Assembly: GCA_964384105.1 (NCBI GenBank)
Contig: CAYLJV010000001.1
Coordinates: 32,001-96,000 of the forward strand
DNA length: 64,000 nt
Direction: 5' to 3'
Source of the DNA: Candidatus Hadarchaeota archaeon
GTDB lineage: Archaea; Hadarchaeota; Hadarchaeia; Hadarchaeales; JAGGTB01
Part shown: piece by piece, positions 5,597 to 43,517 of the stretch
Numbering within the stretch: the first letter of the stretch is position 1
Layout: every line of letters begins with the position of its first letter
Notes under the pieces: model-generated
The model's input: the letters and a program-made list of their open reading frames with translations, nothing else
Told to the model about the DNA's origin: nothing
Database searches by the model: none
Translations under genes and position numbers: made by a program

Positions 5597-5600
5597 GGAA

Positions 5601-6200
5601 TTGGTGATTGATGTGAATACTGAAGAAGTTGAAAATATACTCGAAAACTATACTGACGAGGTCGAGATGGTTCAAGAAAGGCGCCTTGTAGCTATGTTAG
5701 ACAAGGGTAACTACAAGGATTTCTTAAAAGAACTTAGGGATCAGGATCTGAGACATCTCACTGCTATAACTGGCACTGACGTGGGCGGTGAGTTCGAGAT
5801 TATTTATCACATATCTATCGATGATGGGACCTTGTTCAACGCTAAAGTGATGCTTGATAAGAAAGATGGAAAATTGGAGACAGTGACTGATATCTTCCCC
5901 GGTGTGATACTTTACGAACGGGAACTGATGGATATGTTTGGTATAGTAATTGAGAATCACCCGGATCCGAGAAGATTGTTCCTCGCCGATGATTGGCCAG
6001 AGGATAAACATCCGCTTAGAGAGGGCATGTTTAATTATCTTAAAATTTCCGAGAAGAATATCTCCGAGATTAAGGATTTGGCCAGGGATGAGGATCTTGA
6101 TTACGAATTATTGTTAGAAGCTGAAAAGAAAAATAAAAATAGAAAATCTTTGAAGGAATGGATAAAAGATAGAATGAAGAATTCAGGAGAGGAGGAATAA
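5601..6200 (+). CDS. mbhK: MBH subunit K (NuoC-like) with extra C-terminal helical domain
   Basis: YERELMDMFGI and HPDPRRLFLADDWP..HPLR; about 55-aa extension. Confidence 0.9.
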   Translation: MVIDVNTEEVENILENYTDEVEMVQERRLVAMLDKGNYKDFLKELRDQDLRHLTAITGTDVGGEFEIIYHISIDDGTLFNAKVMLDKKDGKLETVTDIFPGVILYERELMDMFGIVIENHPDPRRLFLADDWPEDKHPLREGMFNYLKISEKNISEIKDLARDEDLDYELLLEAEKKNKNRKSLKEWIKDRMKNSGEEE

Positions 6201-6201
6201 A

Positions 6202-7374: not shown

Positions 7375-7375
7375 A

Positions 7376-19372: not shown

Positions 19373-19464
19373 AGTTTACTTTTTGATATTTTGACCAAAA
19401 AATTTCTAAATTTAGCTGAAATTGATTTTATTAAGTATTAAACCGCAAATAGGATTTGGTCCCT

Positions 19465-23216: not shown

Positions 23217-25835
23217 ATGGCAAAGTATGTTTATTCCTTTGACGAAGGAAACGCTGACATGAAGGATCTTTTGGGGGGTAAAGGATCCAATTTAGCAGAA
23301 ATGACTTCTATGGGATTAAATGTTCCACCGGGTTTTACTATTACTACGGAAGCTTGCTTGAATTATCTGGAAGATAAGGAGATTACTCAGGAAGTTAAGA
23401 ATCAGATTAAGGAGAAGATGAAAAAACTCGAGGAAGAGTCCGAAAAGGAATTTGGGGATCCGAAAAATCCTCTTTTAGTATCCGTAAGGTCTGGTGCAGC
23501 GGTCTCTATGCCGGGAATGATGGATACGATACTAAATTTGGGATTGAATGATGAAACTGTCGATGGTTTAGTGCGTAGAACTAATGAAAGATTTGCTTAC
23601 GATAGCTATCGAAGATTCATTAATATGTTCGGTGAGGTAGTTCGAGGTATAGACCATTCTGAATTCGAAGAAATAATGGATGAGTTCAAAGAGAAAAGAG
23701 GGGCCAAAACCGATCTGGGTCTGAAGGCGGGGGATTTGAAGGAGATAACCGAGCGTTACAAGGAGTTAGTGGGTGATGTCCCTTCGGATCCGTGGGATCA
23801 ACTTATAGAGGCTGTAAAGGCTGTTTTCTCATCATGGGAAAATGAGAGAGCCGTTAGATATCGAGAGATCAATAACCTCCCTCACGATATGGGGACTGCA
23901 GTCAACGTTCAGGAAATGGTGTTCGGTAACACTGGAGAGAACTCGGGGAGTGGTGTTGCTTTTACCAGAAATCCTTCCGATGGCGAGAACAAGATTTACG
24001 GTGAGTTCCTGCAGAATGCTCAAGGAGAGGACGTAGTTGCAGGTATAAGAACCCCATTGAATCTTGATGATCTAAAGGATATCTGGCCGGATATATATTC
24101 GGAACTGGTGGATATTTCAGAAATTCTCGAAGAAAAGTACAAGGATATGCAGGATTTCGAATTCACGATCGAAGATGGAGAACTCTATGTTTTACAGACT
24201 CGGACTGGTAAGAGAACCCCTAACGCGGCCGTCAAGATAGCTTACGATATGGCTCAGGATGGAATTATCAGTAAGGAAGTGGCTATATTGAGAGTTAAAC
24301 CTGAGCAAGTCGAAAAGATGCTTCATAAGAAGGTCGATCCAGATGCTGATGTTAAGAAGATTACTAAAGGTCTAAATGCTTCACCTGGTGCGGCTTCTGG
24401 AAAGGTCGTATTTAATACCGACGAGGCAGCTCATAGAGGTTCTAGTGAAAAGATAATTCTTGTCAGACCCGAAACGACACCTGAGGATATTCACGGGCTT
24501 TCTGCTTCTCAGGGAGTCTTGACGAGCAGAGGTGGAATGACAAGTCACGCTGCTGTAGTGGCTAGGGGAATGGGTAAGCCCTGTGTTGTGGGCGCGGAGA
24601 ATATTGAAATAGATCTTAAGAAAGAGGAGTTTGTTGTTGGAGATCGTACTATAAAGAAGGGCGATTACCTCACGATTGATGGTACTACTGGAGATGTCAT
24701 TCTTGGGAGAACTCCCCTTGTAGAACCGGAGTTCACCAATGAATTTAAGCAACTGCTGTCTTGGGCTGATGAAGTTAAGAAAATGGGTGTTTGGGCCAAC
24801 GCTGATACGGTTGATGAATTAAAGAAGGCCCTTGAACTTGGTGCTGAAGGGGTTGGTCTCTGCAGGACTGAACATATGGTCTTTAACCCAGAGAGATTGG
24901 GTGCGGTCCATGATATGTTCGTTGCGGAGAGTGAAGAAATAAGGGAGAAGGCTGTCGAAAAACTGATGCGATTGCAGAAGAATGATTTTAAAAAATTGTT
25001 TGAAGTGATTAACGGTCTACCTATCAAGATAAGATTATTGGATTTACCACTTCACGAATTTTTGCCTACTGATGAGGAGGCTCAAGTCCAGATGGCAGAA
25101 AGGGTTGAGATGGACCTGGATGAAGTTAAGAAGAAAGTGTCCCGACTTAAAGAGGTCAATCCTATGCTGGGTCATAGAGGTTGTCGCCTTGGTATAACGA
25201 ATCCGGAGATCTATAGAATGCAGGTTAGGGCGATACTTGAAGCTGCTATCGAAACAAAGAAAAAAGGGATAGAAGTTGACCCCCATATCATGGTGCCGTT
25301 AGTTGGCTACGTAAAGGAATTAGAAATTTTGAAAGATGAAATATTTGATCCTGTCGAAAAAGAGGTATTCAGCGATAAGGAAGCGATAGACTACTTGGTT
25401 GGGACTATGATTGAGATACCAAGAGCAGCTCTCACAGCTGATGAGATAGCGAAAGAGGCTGACTTCTTTTCTTTTGGCACTAACGATCTAACTCAGATGG
25501 GAATGGGTTATAGTCGTGACGATGTTAAGGCTTTTATACCCGAGTACATAGACCGGGGAATACTTGATAATGACCCGTTCCAGGTGCTCGATAAGTCTGG
25601 TATAGGTCAGTTGATTGAGGTGGCGACGAAAAAGGGTAGAGAGACCAAGAAGGGTCTAAGCATTGGAATATGTGGAGAACATGGTGGAGAACCTTCTTCT
25701 ATAGAGTTCTGTTATAGAGCTGATTTGGATTATACCAGCTGCTCACCTTATAGGATTCCTATAGCGAGAGTGGCTGCTGCTCGGGCAAGAATAGAAGAGG
25801 AAATGGAAGTTGACAAAGGAGCCGCTGGCTACTAG
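23217..25835 (+). CDS. ppdK: Pyruvate, phosphate dikinase
   Basis: LGGKGSNLAEM, SMPGMMDT, GGMTSHAAVVARG (phospho-His), GLCRTEHM, FSFGTNDLTQ, GICGEHGG. Confidence 0.97.
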   Translation: MAKYVYSFDEGNADMKDLLGGKGSNLAEMTSMGLNVPPGFTITTEACLNYLEDKEITQEVKNQIKEKMKKLEEESEKEFGDPKNPLLVSVRSGAAVSMPGMMDTILNLGLNDETVDGLVRRTNERFAYDSYRRFINMFGEVVRGIDHSEFEEIMDEFKEKRGAKTDLGLKAGDLKEITERYKELVGDVPSDPWDQLIEAVKAVFSSWENERAVRYREINNLPHDMGTAVNVQEMVFGNTGENSGSGVAFTRNPSDGENKIYGEFLQNAQGEDVVAGIRTPLNLDDLKDIWPDIYSELVDISEILEEKYKDMQDFEFTIEDGELYVLQTRTGKRTPNAAVKIAYDMAQDGIISKEVAILRVKPEQVEKMLHKKVDPDADVKKITKGLNASPGAASGKVVFNTDEAAHRGSSEKIILVRPETTPEDIHGLSASQGVLTSRGGMTSHAAVVARGMGKPCVVGAENIEIDLKKEEFVVGDRTIKKGDYLTIDGTTGDVILGRTPLVEPEFTNEFKQLLSWADEVKKMGVWANADTVDELKKALELGAEGVGLCRTEHMVFNPERLGAVHDMFVAESEEIREKAVEKLMRLQKNDFKKLFEVINGLPIKIRLLDLPLHEFLPTDEEAQVQMAERVEMDLDEVKKKVSRLKEVNPMLGHRGCRLGITNPEIYRMQVRAILEAAIETKKKGIEVDPHIMVPLVGYVKELEILKDEIFDPVEKEVFSDKEAIDYLVGTMIEIPRAALTADEIAKEADFFSFGTNDLTQMGMGYSRDDVKAFIPEYIDRGILDNDPFQVLDKSGIGQLIEVATKKGRETKKGLSIGICGEHGGEPSSIEFCYRADLDYTSCSPYRIPIARVAAARARIEEEMEVDKGAAGY

Positions 25836-25885
25836 TCACTAATTATCAGATTCTGTACGGAATTTTCTAAATTATTAGAAATTGA

Positions 25886-26944
25886 TTATAAAACTTCTTC
25901 TAGGGCTTCCAGCATTAGGTCTATTTTCTCAAAAGTTACATATCCCATGTTTCCTATTCGGAAGGTTTTCTCGGATAGATCCCCATAGCCTTTCGCTAGT
26001 TCAAAGCCTTTTTCACGCATTTCGTTGTAGACCTCTAGGCCACTCTTTCCTTCGGGAGCGTTTACACAAGAGACGGTTGGACTCTCGTATCCCTCTTCTG
26101 GGAAAAGCGATAGGCCTAAATCCTCAATCCCCTCTTTGATTTTCATACTTCTATTTTTATACATTTCAAAGTGCTTTTCTTTTCCTTTTTCTTCTATCAT
26201 TTTGAGACTTTCATTTAGAGCCAAGACCTGTGGTACCGGTGGGGTCATATGAGTTCCGCTTTTTTTCTTGTCATAGTCCTCGTAGCGCGAAAGGTCAAAG
26301 TACCATCCTTTGTTTTCTGCTTTTCTCGCTTTTTCAAGAGCTTCTTTGCTTACGCTACCGACAGCTAGGCCTGGTGGAACTCCGAAGCACTTTTGCGAAC
26401 TCGCAAAACAGATATCGATGTTCCATTCGTCCACCTTGATTTCCGCGCCACCCATTCCACTTACTGCATCGACAAAGAGAAGCTTATCGTGTTCTTCTAC
26501 TACTTTTCCGAGTTCTGATAGTGGATTCAATAATCCTGTACTGGTTTCGTTGTAAGTTATGGTGACGGCTTCTACGTCGGGAAGTTTAGACAACTTTTCA
26601 TCTAGTTCTTCAGGAGGTATTGGTTTTCCAGATTCGATCTCTAATTTTTCTACTTCCCTTCCGTTTGCTTCAGCGACGTTTGCGTATCTTCTTCCGAAGG
26701 CTCCATTAGTACAACAAAGCATTTTTTCGTTTACACAATTTCTCACGGAGCTTTCCATTACTCCAGAACCTGAACTAGGAAAGGTGAAAACTTTTTCTTC
26801 TGTTTCAAGAAAGTCTTGTAATCTTTTGGTTATTTCTCGATGAGTTTCTCTGTATTCTTTGCTTCGATGGCTGAACATTTGTGTGTCCATCACATCTAGT
26901 ACTCTAGGATAGCAAGCTACTGGACCTACAGTGAATAACTTCAC
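25886..26944 (-). CDS. Class V PLP aminotransferase (serine-pyruvate / phosphoserine aminotransferase-like)
   Basis: FTVGP, SHRS, NETSTG, VDAVS, SSQKC..PPGL, FRIGNMG. Confidence 0.9.
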   Translation of the reverse strand: MKLFTVGPVACYPRVLDVMDTQMFSHRSKEYRETHREITKRLQDFLETEEKVFTFPSSGSGVMESSVRNCVNEKMLCCTNGAFGRRYANVAEANGREVEKLEIESGKPIPPEELDEKLSKLPDVEAVTITYNETSTGLLNPLSELGKVVEEHDKLLFVDAVSGMGGAEIKVDEWNIDICFASSQKCFGVPPGLAVGSVSKEALEKARKAENKGWYFDLSRYEDYDKKKSGTHMTPPVPQVLALNESLKMIEEKGKEKHFEMYKNRSMKIKEGIEDLGLSLFPEEGYESPTVSCVNAPEGKSGLEVYNEMREKGFELAKGYGDLSEKTFRIGNMGYVTFEKIDLMLEALEEVL

Positions 26945-27843
26945 ATTAATTCCTCCTTTATTTTTTGGGCTACTAGTATTGAAAGTTTTTCCTGTGCTTC
27001 TTTCGTGGATGCGCCCAAGTGAGGAGTTGGGAAAACATTATCTAGTTTGGGCAAAGTATAATCTTCTGGAGGCTCTTTGGAATAAACATCGACACAGGCT
27101 CCTGCAATCTCTTTTTCTTTCAATGCTTTTGTGAGAGCTTTTTCATCTACTATGGCGCCCCTGGCAGTATTTATTAATACAGCCGTTGGTTTCATCATTT
27201 TGAGCTCTTTCTCTCCGATCGTACGTTTAGTTTTTTCTGTTAATGGAAGATGAATAGTAACGTAGTCCGATTTTTTAAGTACTTCATTTAGGCCGATGTA
27301 TTCTCCTCCGGCTTCTGTAAAATCGTCGTATTTGGTCCTGTTGTATCCTACTATTTTCATGCCCAGTGAGTTAGCTTTTCTAGCTACTGCTATACCGATC
27401 TTTCCCGTACCTATTACTCCGAGAGTTTTATCATCTATCTCTGATCCTTTCAGCTGACTTTTTATCCACTTTTCTTCTTTCATAGATTTGTAAGCCATCC
27501 CGAGGTTTCTTGACCAAGCGAGCATTAGTCCGATTGTTAGCTCTGCTACAGGGTTTACGGAGGCTTCTGGTGTGTTTAGGACTTTGATATTTTTTTCTTC
27601 TGTTGCTTCGAGGTTGATATTATCTAATCCTACTCCCGCTCTTACTATCAGCTTCAAGTTTTCTGCCTTCTCTAGAACTTCTTTAGTTACATTAGTCCCA
27701 CTTCTTACAACCAAGGCATCTGCAACATGTATTTTTTCCAAAAGCTCTTTTTGAGAAAGTTCTGTGGCTATTTCCACTTCTGCGAATTCTTTCATCTGAT
27801 TTATTCCTGTCTCGTGAACTTTATCGGTGATTAAAATTTTCAT
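26941..27843 (-). CDS. serA: D-3-phosphoglycerate dehydrogenase-like D-2-hydroxyacid dehydrogenase (no ACT domain)
   Basis: VVRSGT, RAGVGLDNI, GTGKIG, NTARG, TPHLGAST.EAQ. Confidence 0.8.
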   Translation of the reverse strand: MKILITDKVHETGINQMKEFAEVEIATELSQKELLEKIHVADALVVRSGTNVTKEVLEKAENLKLIVRAGVGLDNINLEATEEKNIKVLNTPEASVNPVAELTIGLMLAWSRNLGMAYKSMKEEKWIKSQLKGSEIDDKTLGVIGTGKIGIAVARKANSLGMKIVGYNRTKYDDFTEAGGEYIGLNEVLKKSDYVTIHLPLTEKTKRTIGEKELKMMKPTAVLINTARGAIVDEKALTKALKEKEIAGACVDVYSKEPPEDYTLPKLDNVFPTPHLGASTKEAQEKLSILVAQKIKEELM

Positions 27844-27971: not shown

Positions 27972-29306
27972 GTGGTTTTAATGGGAAAAAGCCTAGATGA
28001 AATCAAGGATCTTATTAAGAGCCATCATGAGATGTTTAGTAACGCTATCCCGTTGATAGCTAGCGAAAATGTGACTAGCACTCCTGTTAAAGAGGCTACT
28101 ATCTGCGACTTTTCTCATAGGTACGCTGAAGGGTGGCCAGGAGAAAGAGTTTATGCTGGAGTCAAATATCTTGATGAAGTAGAGCTTACCTGTATAGATT
28201 ATGCAAAGGAACTCTTTAACGCAGATTTTGTAGATGTAAGACCCATATCGGGTGTCTGTTCTAATCTAGTGGTCTATACTGCTTTGACTCGTCCAGGTGA
28301 CTTGATGTTGACTTCACCAATCACTAAGGGTGGTCATATTACAATGGGACCCCATAAGTCTCCAAAGAGTGGTACCTTTATTGGGGGAACAGCCGGTTCT
28401 GTTCACGGACTTGATGTTAGATATTTCGAATTCGATGAAAACGAAATGAATATTGATGTGGACAAGACAGCTGCGAAGATAAGAGAACTAGAACCAGACC
28501 TTTTGATGTTTGGCGCTTCTGTGTTTCTTTTCCCACATCCAATCGAAGAGCTTAGTGATATAGCAAAGGAAGTCGGAGCTAACATAGCTTATGATGCGGC
28601 TCATGTTTCTGGTTTGATCGCTGGCGGAAGGTTCCAGGATCCTCTCAGAGAGGGTGCGGATGTTATGTCAATGAGTACTCATAAAACGCTTCCAGGACCT
28701 CAACATGGTATGGTTGCAGCTCAAGAGGAATATGCGGATAAAATAAAGACAGCTACTTTCCCATCTATGGTAAGTAATCATCATCTTCATAATGTGGCAG
28801 GTTTGACAGTTGCTTTAGCCGAATTTTCGAAGTTTGGAAAAGACTATGTCGATCAGATAATTAAGAATGCCAAAGCAATGGGTCAGGCACTTTCGGAAAG
28901 AGGACTTAACGTTTTGGCGGAGCATAAAGGATACACTGAATCTCATATAGTTCTCCTAGATATAACCGACCTCAAGGATGATGTTGGTTTAGGAAAAGAT
29001 GTGGAAAAAGAGTTAGAGAAAGCTAATATTATTCTTAACAGAAATCTTCTGCCGTGGGATATTAAAGAAGGCCGTCATTTCGAAAATCCTGGCGGAATAA
29101 GAATCGGTACTTCTGAAATAACTAGGTTAGGTATGAAAGAGAGTGATATGGAAGTAATAGCGGACTTTATCGCTCAGATCTTGAAGGAGCAGAAGGACCC
29201 CGAGAAGGTAAAAGAGGAAGTATCTGATTTCAGAAAAGATTTTCAAGATCTCCATTACTGTTTCGAGTCTTCAAAGGGCGCTCACGAGTACATAGAGATT
29301 CGTTAA
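27972..29306 (+). CDS. glyA: Serine hydroxymethyltransferase, archaeal type
   Basis: LIASEN, RYAEG, DAAHV, STHKTLPGPQ (PLP Lys), GIRIGT. Confidence 0.96.
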   Translation: MVLMGKSLDEIKDLIKSHHEMFSNAIPLIASENVTSTPVKEATICDFSHRYAEGWPGERVYAGVKYLDEVELTCIDYAKELFNADFVDVRPISGVCSNLVVYTALTRPGDLMLTSPITKGGHITMGPHKSPKSGTFIGGTAGSVHGLDVRYFEFDENEMNIDVDKTAAKIRELEPDLLMFGASVFLFPHPIEELSDIAKEVGANIAYDAAHVSGLIAGGRFQDPLREGADVMSMSTHKTLPGPQHGMVAAQEEYADKIKTATFPSMVSNHHLHNVAGLTVALAEFSKFGKDYVDQIIKNAKAMGQALSERGLNVLAEHKGYTESHIVLLDITDLKDDVGLGKDVEKELEKANIILNRNLLPWDIKEGRHFENPGGIRIGTSEITRLGMKESDMEVIADFIAQILKEQKDPEKVKEEVSDFRKDFQDLHYCFESSKGAHEYIEIR

Positions 29307-29339
29307 TTGAGTTACATTTACTAATTGTAGGGGTTTTAA

Positions 29340-30476
29340 TTGGGCCTAAATACGACTGCTTTAAATGAATGGCATAAGGAACATGGGAAAGTAGTTTCCT
29401 TTTCTGGCTGGGAACTACCAGTTAAGTTCTCAGGTATACAAGACGAGCACATGACTGTTAGAGAGAACGTAGGTCTTTTTGATATCTCACATATGGGTAG
29501 GGTTCTAGTTGAAGGTGAAGATGCAACTCCCTTCCTCGAGTACCTCCTTACGAGAGATGTTGATGGCCTGTCTAACGGTAAGTGTGGTTATTCTCTTGTT
29601 TGCAATGAAATGGGAGGAATAAAAGACGATCTTGTAATCAATAAGTTTTCTGACGAGAAATACTTGGTTATCTGTAATGCGGTTAATCGTAAAAAAATCT
29701 TGAATTGGTTCATTTTCCTAGAGGAATTTCTAGAGTTCTATGGTGAAGTCGATCTTGATCTAAAAATAGAAGATAAAACAGATTCAACTATTTTAATAGC
29801 GGTTCAGGGTCCTAAATCAGAAAGTACTTTGAACAAGCTTGTTTCTGGGGACCTCCCTGATGGTAGATATACCTTTAAGACTATGGATGTATTAGGGCAC
29901 GAATCTATTGTCTCAAGAACAGGTTATACTGGTGAGGATGGATTTGAGATTATTCCTTTAGACATCCCGAATGAGCCTTCCGAGTCCGCTGTTGAATTAT
30001 GGAGTTCCATTTTGGAGGCGGGTGAGGAATTTGATATCAAACCTTGTGGGCTAGGTTCTAGGGATACTCTTAGGCTTGAAGCTGGAATGCCTCTTTACGG
30101 TCATGAACTTTCGGAGTATATCACACCGTTGGAAGCTAAGCTAACTTTTGTTGTGGATTTAAGTGAGGGGAAAAAGTTTTTCGGAAAAGCTCCTTTGGTC
30201 GAGCAGAAAAAGAACGATTTAGAAAGAGTGCGGGTTGGTTTCGAGGTAGTTGAAAAGGGAGTTCCGAGAGAAGGGATGGAGATAAGAAGAGACGGCGAAA
30301 AAATAGGTGAGGTAACTAGCGGGACGTTCTCCCCTGTTTTGAAGAAAGGTATAGGAATGGGATATGTTCCGTTTGAATATTCTGAGCTTGGTACTTCACT
30401 TGATTTACTGATAAGAGGAAAAGAAAATGAAATAGAAATAGTTAAGTGGCCGTTTTATACTGATCGGGGCGAATGA
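29340..30476 (+). CDS. gcvT: Glycine cleavage T protein
   Basis: FSGWELP, GLFDISHMG, AVQGP, SRTGYTGEDGFE, RDTLRLEAG.PLYGHE. Confidence 0.96.
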   Translation: MGLNTTALNEWHKEHGKVVSFSGWELPVKFSGIQDEHMTVRENVGLFDISHMGRVLVEGEDATPFLEYLLTRDVDGLSNGKCGYSLVCNEMGGIKDDLVINKFSDEKYLVICNAVNRKKILNWFIFLEEFLEFYGEVDLDLKIEDKTDSTILIAVQGPKSESTLNKLVSGDLPDGRYTFKTMDVLGHESIVSRTGYTGEDGFEIIPLDIPNEPSESAVELWSSILEAGEEFDIKPCGLGSRDTLRLEAGMPLYGHELSEYITPLEAKLTFVVDLSEGKKFFGKAPLVEQKKNDLERVRVGFEVVEKGVPREGMEIRRDGEKIGEVTSGTFSPVLKKGIGMGYVPFEYSELGTSLDLLIRGKENEIEIVKWPFYTDRGE

Positions 30477-31864
30477 AGTTGACGCATCACTATATCTCTG
30501 TTTCTGATGAAGAAAGAAAAGAGATGTTGAAAGAAATTGGGATAGAGAACGTTGAGGATTTGTATTCTGATATTCCGGAGAAATTTAAGCTTGATGAGAA
30601 TGTTAAGATTCCTGCAAAAATGTCCGAACTTGAGGTAAAAAATCATTTAGAGAAAATCTTATCGGGTAATAATGCTTCTGGAGAAAAGTTATCATTCTTA
30701 GGCGGTGGAGTTTGGAATCACTATATACCGGAACATGTTTTTGAGATAACGAATAAAGCAGGCTTCAAGACCTCCTATACCCCATATCAGGCAGAGGTTA
30801 GTCAGGGAACGCTCCAAGCTCTTTTCGAGTACCAAAGTATGATGTCGGAGCTGATAGGTCTTCCGATTGTAAATGCTTCTATGTATGATTGGGGCTCGGC
30901 TCTTGGCGAAGCGGCTTTAATGTGTTCAAGAATTACGGGTCGAAACAGGTTTATGGTGCCAGAATACATATCCCCTAACAGGCTCTCAGTTCTAGAGATT
31001 TATTCTTCTGGTCCAGAGTTAGAGATTGTGAATATTCCCCAGTCTGAACAGACCGGCGAGTTAGACTTGGAAGCTTTGAAAGAGATGGCTGAAGATGATA
31101 CAGCTGGAATTTATATTGAGAACCCATCCTATCTGGGGTTTTTAGAAACTCAGTTGAAAGAGATATCGGAAATCACTGATGAAGTAGGAGCCCTTTTCGT
31201 AGTTGGGGTTAATCCTCTCTCCCTTGGATTTTTAAAACCCCCTGAGGAGTACGGCGCTGACATTGTTGTAGGTGAAGGCCACCATCTTGGTAATCCCATG
31301 AATTTCGGCGGACCCCTTTTGGGTATATTTGGATGCAGGGACGATAGAAAATTCATTAGACAGTTTCCTGGCAGAGTTTCAGGAATTACAATTACATTAG
31401 AGGATGACGAGCGGGGGTTTGTTATAGCGTTACAGACTCGAGAGCAACATATTCGAAGAGAAAAAGCCACATCTAATATATGTACAAATAACACTTTGTG
31501 TGCGATAGCATCAGCAGTCTACTTAGCTTCTCTGGGCCCTAAAGGTCTTAGGAACTTGGCGCTAAAGTGTGCAGGAAACGCAGATTATGCAATGAAGAGA
31601 TTCAATAATGTTGAGGGTGTCGAAGCACCCGTTTTTGATAATTCTCACTTCAATGAGTTCACTGTTTCTTTTGAAGCCTCTGAAGCTTCTGCGAAAGAAG
31701 TGAATTTGGAACTTTTGAAAAGAGAAATCTTTGGGGGAAAGCTTATTGGCGAACACTTTCCGGAATTGAAAGATGTTTCACTTTGGTGCACTACCGAACT
31801 TCATAGTAAAGAAGATATTGATCTAACGGCTGATCTGATTGAGGATATATTGGAGGGTTTTTAG
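30473..31864 (+). CDS. gcvPA: Glycine decarboxylase P protein subunit 1
   Basis: YTPYQAEVSQG.LQALFEYQ, NASMYD, LQTREQHIRREKATSNICTN. Confidence 0.96.
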   Translation: MKLTHHYISVSDEERKEMLKEIGIENVEDLYSDIPEKFKLDENVKIPAKMSELEVKNHLEKILSGNNASGEKLSFLGGGVWNHYIPEHVFEITNKAGFKTSYTPYQAEVSQGTLQALFEYQSMMSELIGLPIVNASMYDWGSALGEAALMCSRITGRNRFMVPEYISPNRLSVLEIYSSGPELEIVNIPQSEQTGELDLEALKEMAEDDTAGIYIENPSYLGFLETQLKEISEITDEVGALFVVGVNPLSLGFLKPPEEYGADIVVGEGHHLGNPMNFGGPLLGIFGCRDDRKFIRQFPGRVSGITITLEDDERGFVIALQTREQHIRREKATSNICTNNTLCAIASAVYLASLGPKGLRNLALKCAGNADYAMKRFNNVEGVEAPVFDNSHFNEFTVSFEASEASAKEVNLELLKREIFGGKLIGEHFPELKDVSLWCTTELHSKEDIDLTADLIEDILEGF

Positions 31865-31865
31865 T

Positions 31866-33356
31866 TTGAAGGATTATCAACAGCAGAAGTGGACTGAACC
31901 CCTAATCTTTGAAAAGAGTAAGGAGGGTCATGAAGGATATTCACTTGATCTGGACACTCCGGGATCCGTGGATATACCAGAAGAACTTTTGCGCAAAGAC
32001 TTAAATTTACCTCAACTTTCTGAGCCGGAGATAGTTCAGCATTTTACGAGGCTTTCTCAGATGAACTATGGGGTGGACTGGGGGATATATCCGCTTGGTT
32101 CCTGTACTATGAAGTATAATCCTAGAATTTCTGAGAAACTTGCATCTCTATCGAACGTTCAATCAGTACACCCAGATCAACCTTTAGAGACTATTCAGGG
32201 ATCTTTGAAATTGATTTACAGGTTAGAGGGGCTCCTTTCTGAGATTACCGGAATGAGTGATTTTACCCTACAGCCTTCTGCAGGAGCCCAAGGTGAGTTT
32301 ACGGCGATGTCGATTGTGAGAAAATTTCATGAGACTCGAGGTGATGAGAGTAGGAAAGAGGTAATAGTCCCCGATTCAGCTCATGGGACTAATCCAATTA
32401 GTGGAAGAATGGCTGGTTTTGAAATTGTTGAGATTCCGTCTAATGACCGAGGTAGAGTGGATTTAGAAGCTCTTGACTATGCTGTTTCTGAAGAAACCGC
32501 GGGTGTAATGTTGACCAATCCCAATACTTTGGGTCTCTTTGAGGATGAGATAGAGGATATAGTAGAGATCGTTCACGACCGTGGTGCTTTGCTTTTCTAT
32601 GATGGGGCCAATTTGAATTCAATAATTGGGAAGGTTAGACCGGGTGACATGGGGTTTGACCTACTGCATCTAAATCTTCACAAGACCTTCTCTACACCCC
32701 ATGGTGGTGGTGGCCCGGGTAGTGGACCCGTGGGAGTTAAAGAAGAGTTGAAGGAATATCTACCTGTTCCTCGAGTTGAATATGAGGATAAAGAAGATTT
32801 TTATTATTTCAGCGAGGACTATCCGAAGTCGATAGGAAAGATTCATCCGTACTATGGAAATTTTGGGGTTCTCGTAAAAGCTTACGTATACATACTTCTT
32901 CTGGGTCCCGAAGGGTTAAAGGAAGTTTCGGAAACCGCGGTCCTGAATGCTAACTATATTCAGGAAAAAGTCCGGAAGATAAAGGGTTACGATTTGAAGT
33001 ACGGTGCGGATAACCACTGTAAACACGAGACGGTACTTAGTAGTGAACCTCTTAAGTCAGAAATGGACGTCAGAGCGGGAGATGTGGCGAAGAGATTGCT
33101 TGATTTTGGGGTTCATGCTCCAACTATCTATTTCCCATTAATAGTTCCAGAGGCGCTTATGATAGAACCTACTGAAACAGTTTCTAAAGCTGAACTCGAT
33201 AGGTACTGTGAGGCTCTAAAAACTGTGTCGGAGGAAGCATATTCTGATCCAGAGAAGGTAAAATCTGCCCCCCATAGGATCGCTAGCAGAAAGTTGGATG
33301 ACACAAAAGCTGCTAGGAATCCTATTTTAAGCTGGAAGATGCTTACTAAAAAATAA
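31866..33356 (+). CDS. gcvPB: Glycine decarboxylase P protein subunit 2
   Basis: YPLGSCTMKYNP, SAHGTNP, HLNLHKTFSTPHGGGGPG, MIEPTE; TTG at 31866 just after the gcvPA stop is the likelier start. Confidence 0.96.
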   Translation: MKDYQQQKWTEPLIFEKSKEGHEGYSLDLDTPGSVDIPEELLRKDLNLPQLSEPEIVQHFTRLSQMNYGVDWGIYPLGSCTMKYNPRISEKLASLSNVQSVHPDQPLETIQGSLKLIYRLEGLLSEITGMSDFTLQPSAGAQGEFTAMSIVRKFHETRGDESRKEVIVPDSAHGTNPISGRMAGFEIVEIPSNDRGRVDLEALDYAVSEETAGVMLTNPNTLGLFEDEIEDIVEIVHDRGALLFYDGANLNSIIGKVRPGDMGFDLLHLNLHKTFSTPHGGGGPGSGPVGVKEELKEYLPVPRVEYEDKEDFYYFSEDYPKSIGKIHPYYGNFGVLVKAYVYILLLGPEGLKEVSETAVLNANYIQEKVRKIKGYDLKYGADNHCKHETVLSSEPLKSEMDVRAGDVAKRLLDFGVHAPTIYFPLIVPEALMIEPTETVSKAELDRYCEALKTVSEEAYSDPEKVKSAPHRIASRKLDDTKAARNPILSWKMLTKK

Positions 33357-33375
33357 TCTTTGGAAGTGTGTTCAA

Positions 33376-34473
33376 TTGTCCAGAAAAGAAACTAAAATTT
33401 TTAGGGATTTGAAGAGGGAAGTAATCGATCAAGACTTTTGTCTTAGATGCGGTGCTTGCGTTGCTTCATGTCCAGTAGATTCTTTGGAGTTTGAAGTTGA
33501 TACACCATCACTGAAGGACCGTTGTATAGCTTGCGGTTATTGTTACGCTCAATGTCCTGAACTCGTATCCGACGAGAAATTGAAAAAGAAATTTTTCGGC
33601 GAATCCTCTTCTTCGAAAATTGGTCCATACATGGAAGCGTTTTCTGGAAGGGCCAATTCATCTTCCGTAAAAAAATCGGCACAGGATGGTGGTGTAGTAA
33701 CTGCTTTACTTGTTTCTCTTCTTAAGGAGGGTTGGATAGATGGAGCAGCTCTTATGGATAGAGATTCTGAATGGAGACCTCAGCCAAGGGTTGCAAAAAC
33801 GAAGAAATCTATGATCGAATGTGCAGGCACTAAGTATACTCCAGGTCCTATTTTGACAGCTCTTAGAGAAGCCGTTGATGTTCATGGTCTTGAAAAAATT
33901 GCTCTAGTAGGCACCCCCTGCCAGATTAAAGGTTTTAGGAATATGGAGTTTGGAAAGAAACCGTTTAAGAAGATTTCCGAGAAAGTCGTTTTAACGATTG
34001 GACTGTTCTGTACGAAGAGCTTTACTTATGAAGGATTGATTGAAAAGGTAGTAGTTGATCAATTGGGGATTGATTTGAGGAAGATTTCAAAATTTGATAT
34101 AAAAGGGAAAAATTTGACTATTTATCTGAAAGATGGGGAAGAAGAAAAAGTGCCTTTGAGGGAGATAGGAGAATTTGCTCTTAAACCGTGTGGAACCTGT
34201 ATGGACTTTTCTGGAGAACTGGCCGATATATCGGTCGGGAGTGTGGGTTCTCCGGCAGGCTGGTCTACAACTATCTTGAGGACTGAAAGAGGAAAAGAGG
34301 CTTTCGATTTAGGAAGAAAATCCAAAGCATATGAAATCAAAGAGTTGGATGAAGTAAAACCGGGTATGAGCTTGGTAGAAAAGCTCTCTAATATTAAAAG
34401 AAAGAAATCTGAGAAGAAAATCGGAGAGTATAGAAAAAGAGAAGGAGGATCTCTTCCTTCAAAATATGAATGA
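33376..34473 (+). CDS. F420-dependent oxidoreductase subunit, FrhB family with N-terminal 2x[4Fe-4S] ferredoxin (FpoF/FqoF-like)
   Basis: CLRCGACVASCP, CIACGYCYAQCP, QDGGVVTALL, GTKYT, VGTPCQ, IGLFC, C..C.DF..ELADISVGSVGSP.GWST. Confidence 0.9.
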   Translation: MSRKETKIFRDLKREVIDQDFCLRCGACVASCPVDSLEFEVDTPSLKDRCIACGYCYAQCPELVSDEKLKKKFFGESSSSKIGPYMEAFSGRANSSSVKKSAQDGGVVTALLVSLLKEGWIDGAALMDRDSEWRPQPRVAKTKKSMIECAGTKYTPGPILTALREAVDVHGLEKIALVGTPCQIKGFRNMEFGKKPFKKISEKVVLTIGLFCTKSFTYEGLIEKVVVDQLGIDLRKISKFDIKGKNLTIYLKDGEEEKVPLREIGEFALKPCGTCMDFSGELADISVGSVGSPAGWSTTILRTERGKEAFDLGRKSKAYEIKELDEVKPGMSLVEKLSNIKRKKSEKKIGEYRKREGGSLPSKYE

Positions 34474-34483
34474 TAAATTAGTT

Positions 34484-35584
34484 TTATAGTATTTCGTAAG
34501 TAGTGGTTCGCTGTTTTGGTATCCTGTTTGAGTCTAAAATTATTTTTTCTAGCTGTTTTGGTGTCATCTCTTGTTTTTTTCCTCCTGCTGCTTTTGTTAT
34601 GTTTTCTTCCATTAGAGTTCCAGATAAATCGTTGGCTCCGGCGTTTAGCATTGCCTTGGCTATGTTCGGCCCGAGCTTTACCCAAGAAGTCTGTATATTC
34701 CGGATTTGATTGTTTAGCATTAACCTTGCAACTGAATGGATTTTGAAATGGTCTATTGTTGATATTTCATGGACAAGGTTCTCTAATTCTGTATTTTTAT
34801 TTGCAAAAGCTAGTGGGACTAGTTCGGTAAAACCGCTGGTTTCTTTTTGTATTTTTCTTATTTTAACTAGGTGCTCAGATATTTCTTTTGGGGTTTCTAC
34901 ATGCCCGTACATTATAGTAGCTGTTGTGGGAATTCCCAAGTGGTGACAGGATTTTATTGTCTCTTCCCATTTTCTTGCTTCGATCTTTTTAGGACAGATT
35001 ATTCTTCTTACTCTATTGACCAGTATCTCTGCTGCTGTTCCAGGTACGGAGTTCAGTCCATTTTCTTTTAGAATATTCAAAATCTTCTCTACTTTCTCGC
35101 CTTCTTTCTCTGCTATGTGGTTGATTTCTGCTGGAGAAAATGCATGAATATGGATACTTTCGGATACTTTTCTAACTGCTTCTAGAAATTCTACGTATTC
35201 TTTTAAGCCGAGAGAGGGGTTAATCCCTCCTTGCATGCATATTTCAGTGGCTCCTTTTTTTATCGCTTCCTTGGTTTTTTTCTTTACTTGCTTGGGGGTA
35301 AGTAGATAAGCTTCTTTATTATCTTCCGATCGATAAAAGGCGCAAAATTTACACTTATTATAGCAGATATTGGTGAAGTTTATGTTTCGATTGATTACGT
35401 AAGTTACAACATTGCCAACCGACTTTTTTCTTAGGTAGTCTGCGGCTTTAATTATCAGTCTAGTTTCATTTTCATTGGATTTTAGTAGTGTTTCACCGTC
35501 TTCTACATCAAGGTCCTCGCCCGCGAGAGCTTTTTCTATCACTCTTCCAATTTCTGGTTTTACTTTCCCGGTTAGTTTTTTCAA
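34484..35584 (-). CDS. cofH: FO synthase subunit 2 (radical SAM, CofH)
   Basis: VTYVINRNINFTNICYNKCKFCAF, PGTAAEIL, TTATIMYGHVET, FTELVPL, IQTSWVKLG, GANDLSGTLMEENI. Confidence 0.82.
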   Translation of the reverse strand: MKKLTGKVKPEIGRVIEKALAGEDLDVEDGETLLKSNENETRLIIKAADYLRKKSVGNVVTYVINRNINFTNICYNKCKFCAFYRSEDNKEAYLLTPKQVKKKTKEAIKKGATEICMQGGINPSLGLKEYVEFLEAVRKVSESIHIHAFSPAEINHIAEKEGEKVEKILNILKENGLNSVPGTAAEILVNRVRRIICPKKIEARKWEETIKSCHHLGIPTTATIMYGHVETPKEISEHLVKIRKIQKETSGFTELVPLAFANKNTELENLVHEISTIDHFKIHSVARLMLNNQIRNIQTSWVKLGPNIAKAMLNAGANDLSGTLMEENITKAAGGKKQEMTPKQLEKIILDSNRIPKQRTTTYEIL

Positions 35585-37174: not shown

Positions 37175-38506
37175 TTACTTGAGAGGTCCAACGACTCCTT
37201 CTACGAAGTAATCCATAGTAAGAAGGTGGTTTATAGAAGGCATTTCACCCTCTGGACTTTGTACGTTTCCGTCACGATCAACTACCTCTTGCATGAATGG
37301 GTCCCAAACTCCTCTTCTCATTTGTTCTCTTAGGTTAGAAACTTCTTCAACTACATCGTCTGCGACGTTGTCTCTCCAATGTGGTGAAATCGCGTTTGTC
37401 CCTACTCGTCCGTTTTGTCTGAGGTCACAGATACTCCGGTTGTCTATCTCTGTATATAGGATCTCGTCCATGCCTGGGAAGTGTATAGGCTGTGGATATC
37501 CTCCAGCGAGGTAATCTTTTAGGACTTCGTCTAGGATGACTTCCCAGCGCATTTCATAGCATACTGCTACTTCTTCTTCTGTTGCCCATCCTGCGCGAAC
37601 GTAGTCCAGAGATTTACCGATGAAGGGTATTCCGGCCTCGGAAGCGACTCTGACTGGTGACTGCGAGTCGGTTACTTCCCAGAGTACTGATACGTTTCTA
37701 TCTTCGATTAGGGTTGTTGCGAGTTCTCTTTCTGTTGTGGGGTTGAACCATTCACCAGACCAAAGTACATGAACTTCTGCTTCTGGATCTACGTGTCTTG
37801 CGCCCATTGTGAAGGCGTTTATGCGCCTATAATTTATGGATGCGGGCATTGAAGCTACACATCCTATTCTACCGTTGGGGGATAGAGAGCTTGCTATCAT
37901 CCCAGCTAAGTAAATGGCCTGATATTCCCTTCCATTTGCTCTGATGAAATTGTTCCCATACGGTTTATATGATCCGACAATTTCTGGAACAAAGTATACG
38001 TCTGGATATTGCTGGGAGAGTTCCTCTAATGCAAGTCCAATGTATTCTGCGTTACAGAATATTATGTCAGCTCCACTGTCTTCAATCATACTTGTTGCTA
38101 CATCCTCAACGTCTTCTACAGTCACAGATTCTCTGACTACGGTATTTAGCCAGGGATATTCGTTTTCCATCCACTTTCTTGCAGCGTCACAGGCGGTCGT
38201 CCAAGATTCTGGTCCGACCGGTGCATAGTAGATCCATCCCATAGTTATCTGGTCTTCACCGTCTCCTGTTGTAGCTAATTCATTGATTATACTTTGTGGG
38301 ATTGAGTTTTGCGCTATGTTTCGGATATCACTTTCAGACGCTTCTTGTAGGTAGTTCTGAACATCTGTACTGGTGACTTCTCCTTTTGCTCCACCGTCTT
38401 TGGGAGTTAGAGTGTAAGTCCCTACTCCAACAATTGCTGCAGTAATCACTACAGCAATGATGATTACTCCTGTTGTTGCTAGACCTCTTTTGTCTAGTCT
38501 TTTCAT
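37175..38506 (-). CDS. BMP (PnrA/Med-like) ABC substrate-binding protein, paralogue 1
   Basis: GWIYYAPVG..SWT, YLAGMIA, RINAFTMGA, WFNP..ERELA..L; N-terminal TM preceded by KRG. Confidence 0.9.
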   Translation of the reverse strand: MKRLDKRGLATTGVIIIAVVITAAIVGVGTYTLTPKDGGAKGEVTSTDVQNYLQEASESDIRNIAQNSIPQSIINELATTGDGEDQITMGWIYYAPVGPESWTTACDAARKWMENEYPWLNTVVRESVTVEDVEDVATSMIEDSGADIIFCNAEYIGLALEELSQQYPDVYFVPEIVGSYKPYGNNFIRANGREYQAIYLAGMIASSLSPNGRIGCVASMPASINYRRINAFTMGARHVDPEAEVHVLWSGEWFNPTTERELATTLIEDRNVSVLWEVTDSQSPVRVASEAGIPFIGKSLDYVRAGWATEEEVAVCYEMRWEVILDEVLKDYLAGGYPQPIHFPGMDEILYTEIDNRSICDLRQNGRVGTNAISPHWRDNVADDVVEEVSNLREQMRRGVWDPFMQEVVDRDGNVQSPEGEMPSINHLLTMDYFVEGVVGPLK

Positions 38507-38655
38507 TCTGTTCTCCTTTGTTGGTCTTTAGCTTATGTGCGCTGGCTTTTTAAAATATTTGAGTAGGGCTAAGTTTTCTATAGAAGTCTTAGTGAAGCGT
38601 ATAGGAAAATTTATAAATTCCTATCGTCACATAACCTCTTCGAGTTTAACGGTGG

Positions 38656-39789
38656 TTGCTTTTGTTATTAAAAAATAAAAACGATATAGAGGATTTTGTT
38701 CGAGGATGTACATTCTATGGAACTGGTGGTGGTGGGTCTCCGGCAAACGGATTGAGTATTCTAATGGATGCCTTTGAAGACAAAGGCGAAATTGAAGTCA
38801 AGGACCCATCCGAAATCGAGGATGATTCGTGGACAATTTGTGCATATGGTATGGGTTCCATAGCTCCGAGAACTTCCGAACAAAAGAAGGAAATGAAAAA
38901 TCTAGGTTTAGTTAAAGAAAAAATTCGTTATAAGCTAGTCGAAGCCGTGAAGGAATTTGAGGAATATACTGGCGAAAAAATTGGTTCAATAGTCCCATTG
39001 GAACTAGGTGGGATGAATACTCCTGCTCCAGTGGCTGCAGCAGTTAGACTTGGTATAGATGCGGTAAATGGAGATTATGCAGGAGGTAGAGCGATCCCGG
39101 AGGTTGTTCAGACGATGCCTCACATACATGGAGAGAGAATGAGTCCTTTGGTAAGTGTTGATCAGTGGGGTGATAAGGTAATAATCAAGGAGTCGATAAA
39201 CAACGAAGTTGCTGAAAAGATAGGCAAACTAGTTTCCAATCTTACTTATGGAGAGCTCGCAGGTAATGCTACTTATCTTATCAAAGGAAGTAGAATGAAA
39301 GACTTAGTAGTACCTGATACTTTAAATGAAGCTCTTGAAGTAGGGCGTGCAGTTAGATTAGCTAGAGAAGAAAATGAAGACGTAGTGGAATCTATTGTCG
39401 AATCTACTGGTGGTTATCTGTTATTTGAAGGCGAGATAACTGAAAAGGATGACTACGACAGGGAAGGTTACTACTGGGGTACTAATACTGTTAAAGGAAC
39501 AGGAGAATTTGAAGGCAAGGAATTCAAGTGTTGGTTCAAAAACGAAAACCATGTTTCTTGGTTAGATGGCGAACCATACGTTACTAGTCCGGACTTCATG
39601 ACATTCGTCGATTCTAGTACTGGAGAACCATATACCAATACAGAAATTAAACCAGGAATGGAAATGAGTGTGATAGGTATTAAATCGCACGAAAGCTTCC
39701 GGAAAAAAGAGGCAATAGAGGTTCTTGGTCCCAGGCACTTTGGTCATGATATTGAGTATGTGCCGATAGAGAAGAAAGTCAAAAAATGA
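38656..39789 (+). CDS. DUF917 family protein (thiohydantoin desulfurase-like)
   Basis: GCTFYGTGGGG, ELGGMNT, GDYAGGRAIPEV, FKNEN, SPD. Confidence 0.87.
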   Translation: MLLLLKNKNDIEDFVRGCTFYGTGGGGSPANGLSILMDAFEDKGEIEVKDPSEIEDDSWTICAYGMGSIAPRTSEQKKEMKNLGLVKEKIRYKLVEAVKEFEEYTGEKIGSIVPLELGGMNTPAPVAAAVRLGIDAVNGDYAGGRAIPEVVQTMPHIHGERMSPLVSVDQWGDKVIIKESINNEVAEKIGKLVSNLTYGELAGNATYLIKGSRMKDLVVPDTLNEALEVGRAVRLAREENEDVVESIVESTGGYLLFEGEITEKDDYDREGYYWGTNTVKGTGEFEGKEFKCWFKNENHVSWLDGEPYVTSPDFMTFVDSSTGEPYTNTEIKPGMEMSVIGIKSHESFRKKEAIEVLGPRHFGHDIEYVPIEKKVKK

Positions 39790-39969
39790 GTCTAGATTTT
39801 CATCCTTCACTTTTTTCTATTTTTTCTTGGGGTTCTCATAGACTATTTTCAATCTAGAAAAGGTATTGATTAAAAACATATATACTATCAAAACCGCTAT
39901 TTAGTAAAGGATTGCCTCCAAATTGTTGGAAACGGCTAGAGATGAGTGAAATAAGGAGAGTTGGATTAA

Positions 39970-41487
39970 ATGGAATCCGATGAGTATATCTTTGAAATGA
40001 GGAATATTACGAAAAGGTATCCCGGGGGAGTACTTGCTAATAAGAACGTAGATTTTAATGGAAAGTTAGGTGAGATTCATGCTCTGGTGGGGGAGAACGG
40101 TGCGGGAAAGACAACTTTAATGCATATTCTTTCTGGATTGTATAAACAGAACGAGGGAGAGATTTACGTTGATGGGGAAAAGGTCAATATAAAGTCCCCA
40201 AGGGAAGCTCTTAAACATGGGATCGGAATGGTCCACCAAGAGAGATTTCTTATTCCCGCTCATTCTGTGATAGAGAATATAGTACTCGGAGCTCCAGAGG
40301 GCTGGAAGCCTGATAAGAAAAAGGTAAAGAAACAAGCCGAAGAGATCTGCAAAAAATATAATTTGAAATTGGATTTAGATGCGAAGATTAGCGAGCTTTC
40401 AGCTGGAGAGAAACAACTGGCAGAGATTTTGAAGGTATTGTATCTAGATACTAATATAGTCATACTGGATGAGCCTACTTCCGTCTTGACTCCTGAAGAG
40501 ACAGAAAGATTTCTTGGGTCTATTAAGAAGATGGCTGAAGAAGGAAATGTCTGTATAGTTTTTATATCTCATAAGCTTCCGGTTGTTCTGAATATTAGTG
40601 ATCGTATAACTGTTCTTAGGGGAGGCGAGATAGTAGGGACTACGACTCCTGAAGAGAGCTCGCTTAAGGAACTCTCTAAGATGATGGTGGGCCGAGAAGT
40701 TCTTATGGATTTGGAGAGGGAGACTCAAGAGTCCGGGGAAGTAATACTCGAGCTCGAGAATATTTCCGCTAAAAATGATCGTGGTATAGAGGCTCTAAAG
40801 GATGTTTCTTTGGAAGTTCGGGAAGGTGAGATTTTGAGTATTGCTGGGGTTTCTGGTAATGGACAAGGTGAGTTGATGGAGGTAATAATGGGTTTAAGGA
40901 AACCTACTAAAGGAAAAATTATTTTTAGAGGTGTAGATGTTACCAATCTCTCAGTACAGGAAAGATGGAAAAAAGGCCTAGCTTATATTCCGTCAGAAAG
41001 GGTTGAGGTTGGGGTAATAGAAGAGTATAACTTAGTAGATAACGTCTTAATGTGTTTTTACCACGACGAAAGATATTGTAATCGAGGGGTATTGGACTAC
41101 AGTAAGTTGGGAGAAATTACAGAGAAATTCATTTCAGAATATAAAATAAAGGCGGAGGGTACTGACACACTTGTTGGTCACTTGTCTGGTGGGAATATCC
41201 AGAAACTTATCTTAAGCAGAGTTCTGGCAAGAAATCCAGATTTGTTGCTTGCGGAAGATCCTACCCATGGACTCGATGTAGCATCTATGGAGTTTGTGCG
41301 TAAGAAGCTTCTTGAGTTGAGACGTAATGGAAAAGGAGTTTTACTTGTTTCTAAAGATCTCGATGAGGTTATATCTATAAGCGATAGAATAGCTCCAATT
41401 TATGAAGGTGAAATCATGGGAGTTGTCTCTGCTGAGGATGCTACCAAGGATAAAATTGGTCATATGATGATGGGTGAAAAAGAATAA
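39970..41487 (+). CDS. ABC transporter ATPase, CUT2/nucleoside type (two NBDs)
   Basis: GENGAGKTT, LSAGEKQ, ILDEPT, ISHKL, GVSGNGQ, LSGGNIQK. Confidence 0.95.
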   Translation: MESDEYIFEMRNITKRYPGGVLANKNVDFNGKLGEIHALVGENGAGKTTLMHILSGLYKQNEGEIYVDGEKVNIKSPREALKHGIGMVHQERFLIPAHSVIENIVLGAPEGWKPDKKKVKKQAEEICKKYNLKLDLDAKISELSAGEKQLAEILKVLYLDTNIVILDEPTSVLTPEETERFLGSIKKMAEEGNVCIVFISHKLPVVLNISDRITVLRGGEIVGTTTPEESSLKELSKMMVGREVLMDLERETQESGEVILELENISAKNDRGIEALKDVSLEVREGEILSIAGVSGNGQGELMEVIMGLRKPTKGKIIFRGVDVTNLSVQERWKKGLAYIPSERVEVGVIEEYNLVDNVLMCFYHDERYCNRGVLDYSKLGEITEKFISEYKIKAEGTDTLVGHLSGGNIQKLILSRVLARNPDLLLAEDPTHGLDVASMEFVRKKLLELRRNGKGVLLVSKDLDEVISISDRIAPIYEGEIMGVVSAEDATKDKIGHMMMGEKE

Positions 41488-41504
41488 TTTGAGATATAGA
41501 TAAA

Positions 41505-42545: not shown

Positions 42546-42555
42546 AGGTGGATAT

Positions 42556-43431: not shown

Positions 43432-43517
43432 TTTTCTAAAGTCTTTGTCTCTTGGTTATTGCCATAGACGCAGAATTTATATCTAATAGACAATCATTAT
43501 CTGCAATAGGTAATAAC

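Follow-up and report, generated by a model that had tools for sequence, protein, structure and literature searches.

A gene for an FrhB-like protein, here named FRHB_A, lies at the end of a row of glycine cleavage genes in a 64-kb stretch of the genome of a Candidatus Hadarchaeota archaeon, and its product belongs to a clade whose genes are, in many relatives, stop-start coupled to the gene of the aminomethyltransferase (T-protein, gcvT) of the glycine cleavage system (GCS). In the interpretation preferred here, to which a probability of about 0.5 is assigned, the proteins of this clade (FRHB) are ferredoxin-linked F420 reductases that feed a Mer-type methylene-folate reductase acting on the one-carbon units supplied by the GCS and serine hydroxymethyltransferase (SHMT). 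The stretch, referred to as the window, covers positions 32001-96000 of contig C1 (CAYLJV010000001.1) of an archaeal genome of 1.62 Mb (G000), which is divided over 12 contigs and is 90% complete; the paralogue of FRHB_A at another locus is named FRHB_B. FrhB-like modules are attached to very different enzymes, and most of the paralogues are without an assigned role. With its coupling to the T-protein gene and its flanking genes, which are mer and those of F420 and folate biosynthesis, the clade suggests that folate one-carbon metabolism has an F420-dependent branch in non-methanogenic, MetF-less archaea. It also provides a concrete candidate for F420 reduction in cells that have neither Fno nor Frh, and raises the question of what reoxidizes the H-protein in the many relatives in which no lipoamide dehydrogenase was found.

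FRHB_A falls within the FrhB/FdhB/FpoF superfamily (PF04422, 82.2 bits vs. a cut-off of 22; PF04432, 142.5 vs. 23.3), with the Pfam domains Fer4 at residues 12-65, FrhB_FdhB_N at 89-163 and FrhB_FdhB_C at 173-326. In an alignment of 28 sequences, both CxxCxxCxxxC motifs of the N-terminal ferredoxin domain (C22/C25/C28/C32 and C50/C53/C56/C60) are conserved. Conservation is complete or reaches at least 90% for twelve cysteines in all and for a Q-D-G-G motif; C182, C212, C272, C275, Q103 and G105 are invariant, and D104 and G106 are conserved in at least 90% of the sequences. By analogy with solved relatives, C182, C212, C272 and C275 as well as Q103-D104-G105-G106 are the probable cofactor ligands. 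The AlphaFold2 (AF2) model of FRHB_A has a pLDDT of 91.6 and a pTM of 0.91, and its best full-length fold matches in Foldseek are 8RIU_B (TM 0.88) and 8RJA_E (TM 0.83), followed by FrhB and the N-terminal part of Fsr. These features suggest a stand-alone F420-reductase module, in which an N-terminal domain with two [4Fe-4S] clusters would be wired to a FrhB-type domain with one [4Fe-4S] cluster and FAD, and hydride would be exchanged with coenzyme F420. Most likely, FRHB_A works as a ferredoxin:F420 oxidoreductase, with ferredoxin as its presumed partner.

Multiple known systems resemble FRHB_A, and its placement against FpoF, FqoF, the N-terminal half of Fsr and FGltS was based on HMM cut-offs and PDB scores. 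The two best fold matches are the zeta subunit of the F420-reducing carbon monoxide dehydrogenase (CODH; 8RIU_B) and FwdI (8RJA_E) of Ca. Ethanoperedens thermophilum, which share the layout of FRHB_A, an N-terminal 2x[4Fe-4S] ferredoxin domain and a FrhB-type reductase, at similar lengths (370 and 359 aa, respectively, vs. 365 aa) and with 33% and 30% identity. In PMC11493965, as far as its text on this point goes, a layout with a ferredoxin domain (residues 1-83) and an F420-reductase domain is described, and it is this layout that turns ferredoxin-type enzymes into F420 reducers. However, the genes for the zeta subunit and FwdI accompany those of CODH or Fwd, to which both proteins bind, whereas the FRHB loci contain no CODH, Fwd or Fe-S partner genes. 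The soluble FpoF/FqoF proteins (Methanosarcina mazei; cited in PMC9012536) have the same domain content and proposed reaction as FRHB_A, and FpoF has been reported, in work cited by the same paper, to be a ferredoxin:F420 oxidoreductase. Assignment of FRHB_A to FpoF/FqoF was rejected, with scores of 209.8 bits vs. 475 for NF040616 and 211.7 vs. 444 for NF006808; neither FRHB locus lies in an Fpo/Fqo context (no genome-wide search for Fpo genes was made).

The best sequence match to the F420-reductase domain is FrhB of the F420-reducing [NiFe]-hydrogenase (9R51_B, 4OMF_C; 220 bits over residues 82-359, approximately 40% identity). FrhB itself lacks the N-terminal ferredoxin domain that is present in FRHB_A, and it partners with FrhA and FrhG. 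FRHB_A was also rejected as FrhB proper, as TIGR03289 gives 255.5 bits vs. a cut-off of 331.5 and neither frhA nor frhG is found beside either FRHB copy. The N-terminal half of Fsr (7NP8) has the same ferredoxin and F420-reductase layout (TM 0.79 over the query), but Fsr is approximately 620 aa long with a fused sulfite-reductase half, whereas FRHB_A ends at residue 365, after the reductase domain. A FrhB linked to glutamate synthase (FGltS/GOGAT) was considered as well, and no GltS-like gene was found by Pfam among nine downstream neighbors from six loci of relatives. The neighbors found instead encode a permease, a DUF169 protein, a B12-radical SAM protein, AAA/TIP49 ATPases, a GFO/IDH/MocA-family oxidoreductase, an FMN reductase and a deoxyhypusine synthase.

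The neighborhood of FRHB was searched in 40 genomes of the same order, representing five coded families and 17 genera. The closest named homologs of FRHB_A come from Hadesarchaea/Hadarchaeota and MSBL1. Full-length FRHB homologs are present in 31 of the relatives, a fragment in one and none in eight. The gcvT gene occurs in 22 relatives, of which 17 also carry FRHB, and in 14 of these 17 (14/40; families f1, f3 and f4) it directly precedes FRHB in the same orientation. In all 13 loci that could be aligned, the distance between the gcvT stop and the FRHB start, taken as the start codon nearest the conserved N-terminus, is between -8 and +2 nt, which represents stop-start coupling. Three genomes have both genes in an uncoupled form: G004 (gcvT-gcvPA-gcvPB-gcvH), G034 (gcvT-gcvH-gcvPA-gcvPB) and G040 (gcvT beside mer, with FRHB 6.9 kb away). 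In a tree of 36 rows, in which three rows flagged for long branches were kept, all 13 gcvT-linked rows fall in one clade of 17 rows (SH-aLRT 83), and copies from other contexts form separate clades. FRHB_A is thus placed in a clade linked to gcvT and mer and does not group with subunits of another complex. The link of FRHB to the gcv genes is no chance. One FRHB homolog (G019:C16:12736-13806, L034) contains an in-frame TGA, for which a sequencing error, decay to a pseudogene or recoding of the codon would be possible explanations.

On the 3' side of FRHB, the 14 coupled loci have a convergent mer in seven cases, a contig edge in three and unrelated genes in four. The convergent mer of the relatives scores 389 bits vs. 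276 for NF002619 and is followed by cofE, cofD, cofH and cofG. The usual order of this order-wide block is (folate genes<) gcvT> FRHB> mer< cofE> cofD> cofH< cofG<, and several loci have a DHPS-like gene and a gene for a CofE-like, folate-type glutamate ligase on the 5' side. In the relatives, gcvH-gcvPA-gcvPB is found at a separate locus, usually behind lplB-lplA-lipS1-lipS2. Among 80 metagenome loci obtained by an FRHB alignment search, gcvT>FRHB was observed in four and FRHB>mer< in five; all of these are among the most similar matches, and therefore the gcvT-FRHB-mer arrangement looks confined to this lineage. With FRHB_A alone as the query against genome contigs, only two irrelevant bacterial ferredoxin-domain matches were obtained. 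As far as the searches reach, the conserved gcvT-FRHB-mer-cof neighborhood is previously undescribed. FrhB paralogs are reported in PMC9012536 in the contexts of HdrA, pyruvate:ferredoxin oxidoreductase (PFOR), CODH, GltS, NuoF-Trx, Fsr, Fpo/Fqo, Fdh and Frh, and the accessible parts of that paper name no gcvT or mer context. Neither this neighborhood nor a FrhB or F420 link to glycine cleavage was found described in the literature searched, although such a clade may be included in the trees and tables that supplement PMC9012536 and PMC11493965; in the MSBL1 paper PMC4725937, the term "glycine cleavage" has zero occurrences.

In the window itself, the coordinates and profile scores bear out an earlier description that was made from the DNA letters alone (the sequence-only reading): glyA, gcvT, gcvPA and gcvPB are co-directional, tightly packed and all above their NCBIfam cut-offs, and they are followed by the 2x[4Fe-4S]-FrhB protein and a convergent cofH (Table 1). 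The TAA stop codon of gcvPB (33354-33356) is separated from the TTG start codon of FRHB_A by a gap of 19 nt, which has no room for a separate promoter, and co-transcription of FRHB_A with the gcv genes is therefore likely. The GGAAGTG motif in this gap suggests a ribosome-binding site for translation of FRHB_A inside the operon. Contigs from other samples bridge the junctions: one contig of run X2 covers 33235-33545, a second X2 contig covers 33717-34683, and an X3 contig covers 34458-34660. Both runs belong to the study that includes the likely source sample. The two FRHB_A junctions are therefore no artefact of a single-sample assembly.

The adjacency of gcvPB and FRHB, to which the sequence-only reading had drawn attention, does not recur in related archaea, as none of the 24 relatives with gcvPB showed an FRHB gene at a distance of up to 1.5 kb from it; what recurs, in three families and in the metagenome loci, is the coupling to gcvT. 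The gcvPB-FRHB pair is thus peculiar to this genome and derives from an older gcvT-FRHB pair. The genome holds exactly two FrhB-family genes. FRHB_B (C1:432948-434015) is 53% identical to FRHB_A and has the context FRHB_B> mer< cofE> cofD> .. cofG<. In the tree, the two copies are sisters (SH-aLRT 92), with the G004 copy next (93). Since FRHB_A and FRHB_B are sisters with complementary neighbors, the ancestral block was split after duplication of FRHB, with FRHB_A keeping gcvT and cofH and FRHB_B keeping mer, cofE, cofD and cofG. Insertion of gcvPA-gcvPB between gcvT and FRHB and the addition of glyA gave rise to the present operon of the window.

The window contains no match to GCV_H, lipoamide dehydrogenase or LplA, as had been noted before; in a whole-genome profile search, all matches of the genome lie outside the 64 kb. 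Two gcvH genes are present (C5:7669-8052, 150.7 bits; C1:638107-638484, 130.6 bits). The second gcvH has a lipoamide dehydrogenase gene, lpdA, directly upstream on the same strand (422.3 bits vs. an NCBIfam cut-off of 408.8; the pair spans C1:638107-639870), and the C5 gcvH sits in a row lplB-lplA-lipS1-lipS2-gcvH, in which LipS1, LipS2 and LplB were assigned by clustering with orthologs that score as LplB, LplA-large, LipS1 and LipS2. By its composition (P, T, H and L, with lipoylation genes), the GCS of this genome is therefore a complete, canonical one. Departures from the canonical system are the distribution of the genes over four loci and the F420 reductase at the end of the P/T operon; for most relatives, no L-protein gene was found. 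As canonical gcvH and lpdA genes exist elsewhere in the genome, FRHB_A is no stand-in for the H- or L-protein here, contrary to the proposal in the sequence-only reading.

A second, divergent gcvPA/gcvPB pair (C1:~185800-188750; 46% and 41% identical to the pair in the window) is followed by a gene of the NAD-kinase family. Of 20 loci of relatives (L216-L234), 13 have such a gene of approximately 370 aa (ATP-NAD-kinase family; PF01513, PF20143, DAGK-like fold) behind gcvH-gcvPA-gcvPB, either adjacent or no more than three genes away. In the genome studied here, it is present at C5:6407-7564 (-), after gcvH, and at C1:~188805-189953 (+), after the second gcvPB. It also occurs in genomes without lpdA.

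The inventory of one-carbon and F420 enzymes was used to place FRHB in metabolism. In the genome, FolD is present and Mer (C1:434043-435005) scores 359 bits vs. a cut-off of 348.7, whereas Mtd, Mch, MetF, formate-tetrahydrofolate ligase (FTHFS, Fhs) and CdhC (acetyl-CoA synthase, ACS) were not found, nor was Fno above its cut-off. The two FRHB proteins are the only recognizable F420 reductases of this genome. A Mer homolog has been proposed as an F420-dependent methylene-tetrahydrofolate reductase in haloarchaea, according to the part of PMC8305020 that treats it. A one-carbon pathway based on tetrahydromethanopterin (H4MPT) was rejected, since the genome has FolD and neither Mtd nor Mch was found. 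The reductive glycine or Wood-Ljungdahl direction was rejected as well, with FTHFS and CdhC not found; coupling that favors the reductive direction, as suggested before, is thus not borne out by the genes of the 90% complete genome, in which Mtd and Mch are also missing.

In the proposed scheme, the GCS and SHMT would load one-carbon units onto a folate-type carrier in the methylene form. A Mer-type enzyme, presumably specific for folate, would then reduce the methylene to the methyl form with F420H2 in a genome without MetF. FRHB would regenerate the F420H2 from reduced ferredoxin in a genome without Fno and without an F420-reducing hydrogenase. Two ferredoxin-linked enzymes in the window fit this scheme: an aldehyde:ferredoxin oxidoreductase and the membrane-bound group-4 [NiFe]-hydrogenase-like (MBH-like) cluster at approximately 2105-8317, which had been recognized earlier and is recovered here (subunits at 3332-8317 were scored, and the small open reading frames (ORFs) at 2105-3335 were counted by position only). 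The link to the F420/ferredoxin pool that was suggested in the sequence-only reading is best placed at the one-carbon unit, through the Mer-type reductase, and not at the lipoyl H-protein.

Several observations weigh against this scheme. Co-occurrence of FRHB and mer is loose, as mer is found without FRHB in four relatives (G014, G015, G018 and G032) and FRHB without mer in nine, namely the six genomes of family f2, whose copies belong to another clade, and G022, G031 and G039. In addition, mer lies on the opposite strand, so the operon partner of FRHB is gcvT and not mer, and a freely diffusing F420 pool does not account for stop-start coupling to the T-protein, which is not a redox enzyme. 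Two FRHB copies also seem more than anabolic methyl supply would call for. Whether the carrier is folate or a methanopterin-like pterin is deduced from the gene inventory only, and absences in a 90% complete genome are provisional. Finally, an lpdA-like gene was found in none of the 14 relatives with coupled gcvT and FRHB, which keeps alive the substitution of the L-protein by FRHB.

Such a substitution would mean that FRHB in this order reoxidizes (or reduces) the lipoyl arm of GcvH with F420 or ferredoxin instead of dihydrolipoamide dehydrogenase and, together with Mer, closes a redox-neutral loop; this is considered improbable. Equally improbable is its stricter form, in which the gcvT-coupled FRHB would be a fourth GCS component that passes electrons from the lipoyl H-protein via F420 to Mer, acting on the methylene-folate of the same turnover, with glycine and folate giving methyl-folate, CO2 and NH3 in a redox-neutral manner. 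The coupled genomes carry gcvH-gcvPA-gcvPB and lipoylation genes, and the conserved stop-start coupling to gcvT is in line with a role in the GCS. Lipoamide dehydrogenase-like genes (TIGR01350, E<=1e-60) were found in seven of the 40 relatives, all six of the window's own genus and G040, and were not found in 20 of the 22 relatives with gcvT or in 21 of the 24 with gcvPB. The gcvT-bearing relatives that do have one, G004 and G040, lack gcvT-FRHB coupling, and the gcvT-gcvPA-gcvPB operon of G004 ends in gcvH at the exact place that FRHB_A takes in the window. In midpoint potential, F420 and NAD lie at about equal distances from the lipoamide couple. However, the presence of lpdA follows phylogeny (one genus and one genome) and so represents no more than two or three independent events, and the genome of the window has a canonical lpdA-gcvH operon besides FRHB_A. 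Five relatives with gcvT have neither FRHB nor an lpdA-like gene (G012, G015, G025, G035 and G038), and therefore some other solution exists in the order. Family f2 has FRHB homologs but no GCS. Moreover, apart from the cluster ligands, the alignment of 28 FRHB sequences contains neither a further conserved Cys pair nor a disulfide-active motif, and to our knowledge, no FrhB-family enzyme acts on dithiols. A complex prediction for FRHB_A and GcvT, run without controls, scored 0.00 vs. a mark of 0.32 and gives no evidence either way.

Like the zeta subunit and FwdI, FRHB could instead be a docking subunit of an Fe-S enzyme encoded elsewhere, such as a ferredoxin-dependent oxidoreductase, a hydrogenase or a glutamate synthase, with its proximity to gcvT due to shared regulation or to an F420 gene island. 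The closest full-length structures are indeed docking subunits, as described for 8RIU_B and 8RJA_E in PMC11493965, FrhB paralogs are known from many conserved clusters (HdrA, PFOR, CODH, GltS and NuoF-Trx in the account given by PMC9012536), and sister clades in the relatives are in other conserved contexts. No Fe-S enzyme gene is conserved beside the FRHB clade, however; the 3' neighbors are variable and unrelated, the link to GOGAT was looked for and not found, and the only conserved neighbors are gcvT, mer and the cof/folate genes, which makes a docking role unlikely. A function in F420 biosynthesis or maturation, for example in the reduction of a biosynthetic intermediate, is very improbable. 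Most loci have FRHB within one to three genes of cofE, cofD, cofH and cofG, and the FRHB_A-cofH gap is only 10 nt, but G014, G015 and G018 have cofD (340-353 bits) without FRHB, G031 and G039 have gcvT-FRHB with no cofD found, and all characterized relatives of the protein use F420 as a redox substrate.

Table 1. Genes and signals of the glycine cleavage region, in positions of the window
Feature	Position	Strand	Basis
Class-V aminotransferase (serine/glyoxylate-type)	25886..26944	-	Pfam Aminotran_5 94.6 bits; best NCBIfam matches below cut-offs; divergent from gcv operon
D-2-hydroxyacid dehydrogenase (phosphoglycerate dehydrogenase/glyoxylate reductase-like)	26941..27843	-	Pfam 2-Hacid_dh_C 199 bits; TIGR01327 340 vs. 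cut-off 454 (below)
glyA, serine hydroxymethyltransferase (SHMT)	27972..29306	+	NF000586 452.5 bits vs. cut-off 335
gcvT, aminomethyltransferase (T-protein)	29340..30476	+	TIGR00528 370.6 bits vs. 235.85
gcvPA, P-protein subunit 1	30473..31864	+	NF001696 566 bits vs. 364
gcvPB, P-protein subunit 2	31839..33356	+	NF003346 734 bits vs. 441
Shine-Dalgarno-like GGAAGTG	33362..33368	+	Sequence reading; 7 nt ahead of TTG start of FRHB_A
FRHB_A, 365 aa: 2x[4Fe-4S] ferredoxin domain and FrhB-type F420-reductase domain (FAD, one [4Fe-4S])	33376..34473	+	Pfam, NCBIfam
cofH, FO synthase subunit (F420 biosynthesis)	34484..35584	-	NF005609 455 bits vs. 426; convergent with FRHB_A, 10-nt gap

A pyruvate phosphate dikinase gene (23217-25835; TIGR01828, 1313 bits) lies beside the divergent pair of class-V aminotransferase and phosphoglycerate dehydrogenase-like genes just 5' of glyA. 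Positions 23217-27843 of the window read as a serine/glycine/one-carbon island.

Other genes of the window were also annotated. A second Mer-like enzyme, an LLM-class F420-dependent oxidoreductase with a TIGR03555 score of 226.6 bits, which is below the cut-off, is encoded at 44775-45749, directly behind a M24 creatinase/prolidase-type hydrolase (43452-44762) and a BMP-family ABC transporter (37175-43431). This enzyme may contribute a further F420-dependent reaction, used when an imported nitrogen compound is degraded. At 10012-17546 lie two co-directional and very large ORFs (969 and 1542 aa), which contain Ig-like, Kelch, LTD and glucodextranase-B domains and probably encode surface or secreted proteins. 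The ORF at 19456-20328 has the layout of a DacZ-type diadenylate cyclase, with PK_C/DacZ_P sensor domains followed by the DAC domain.

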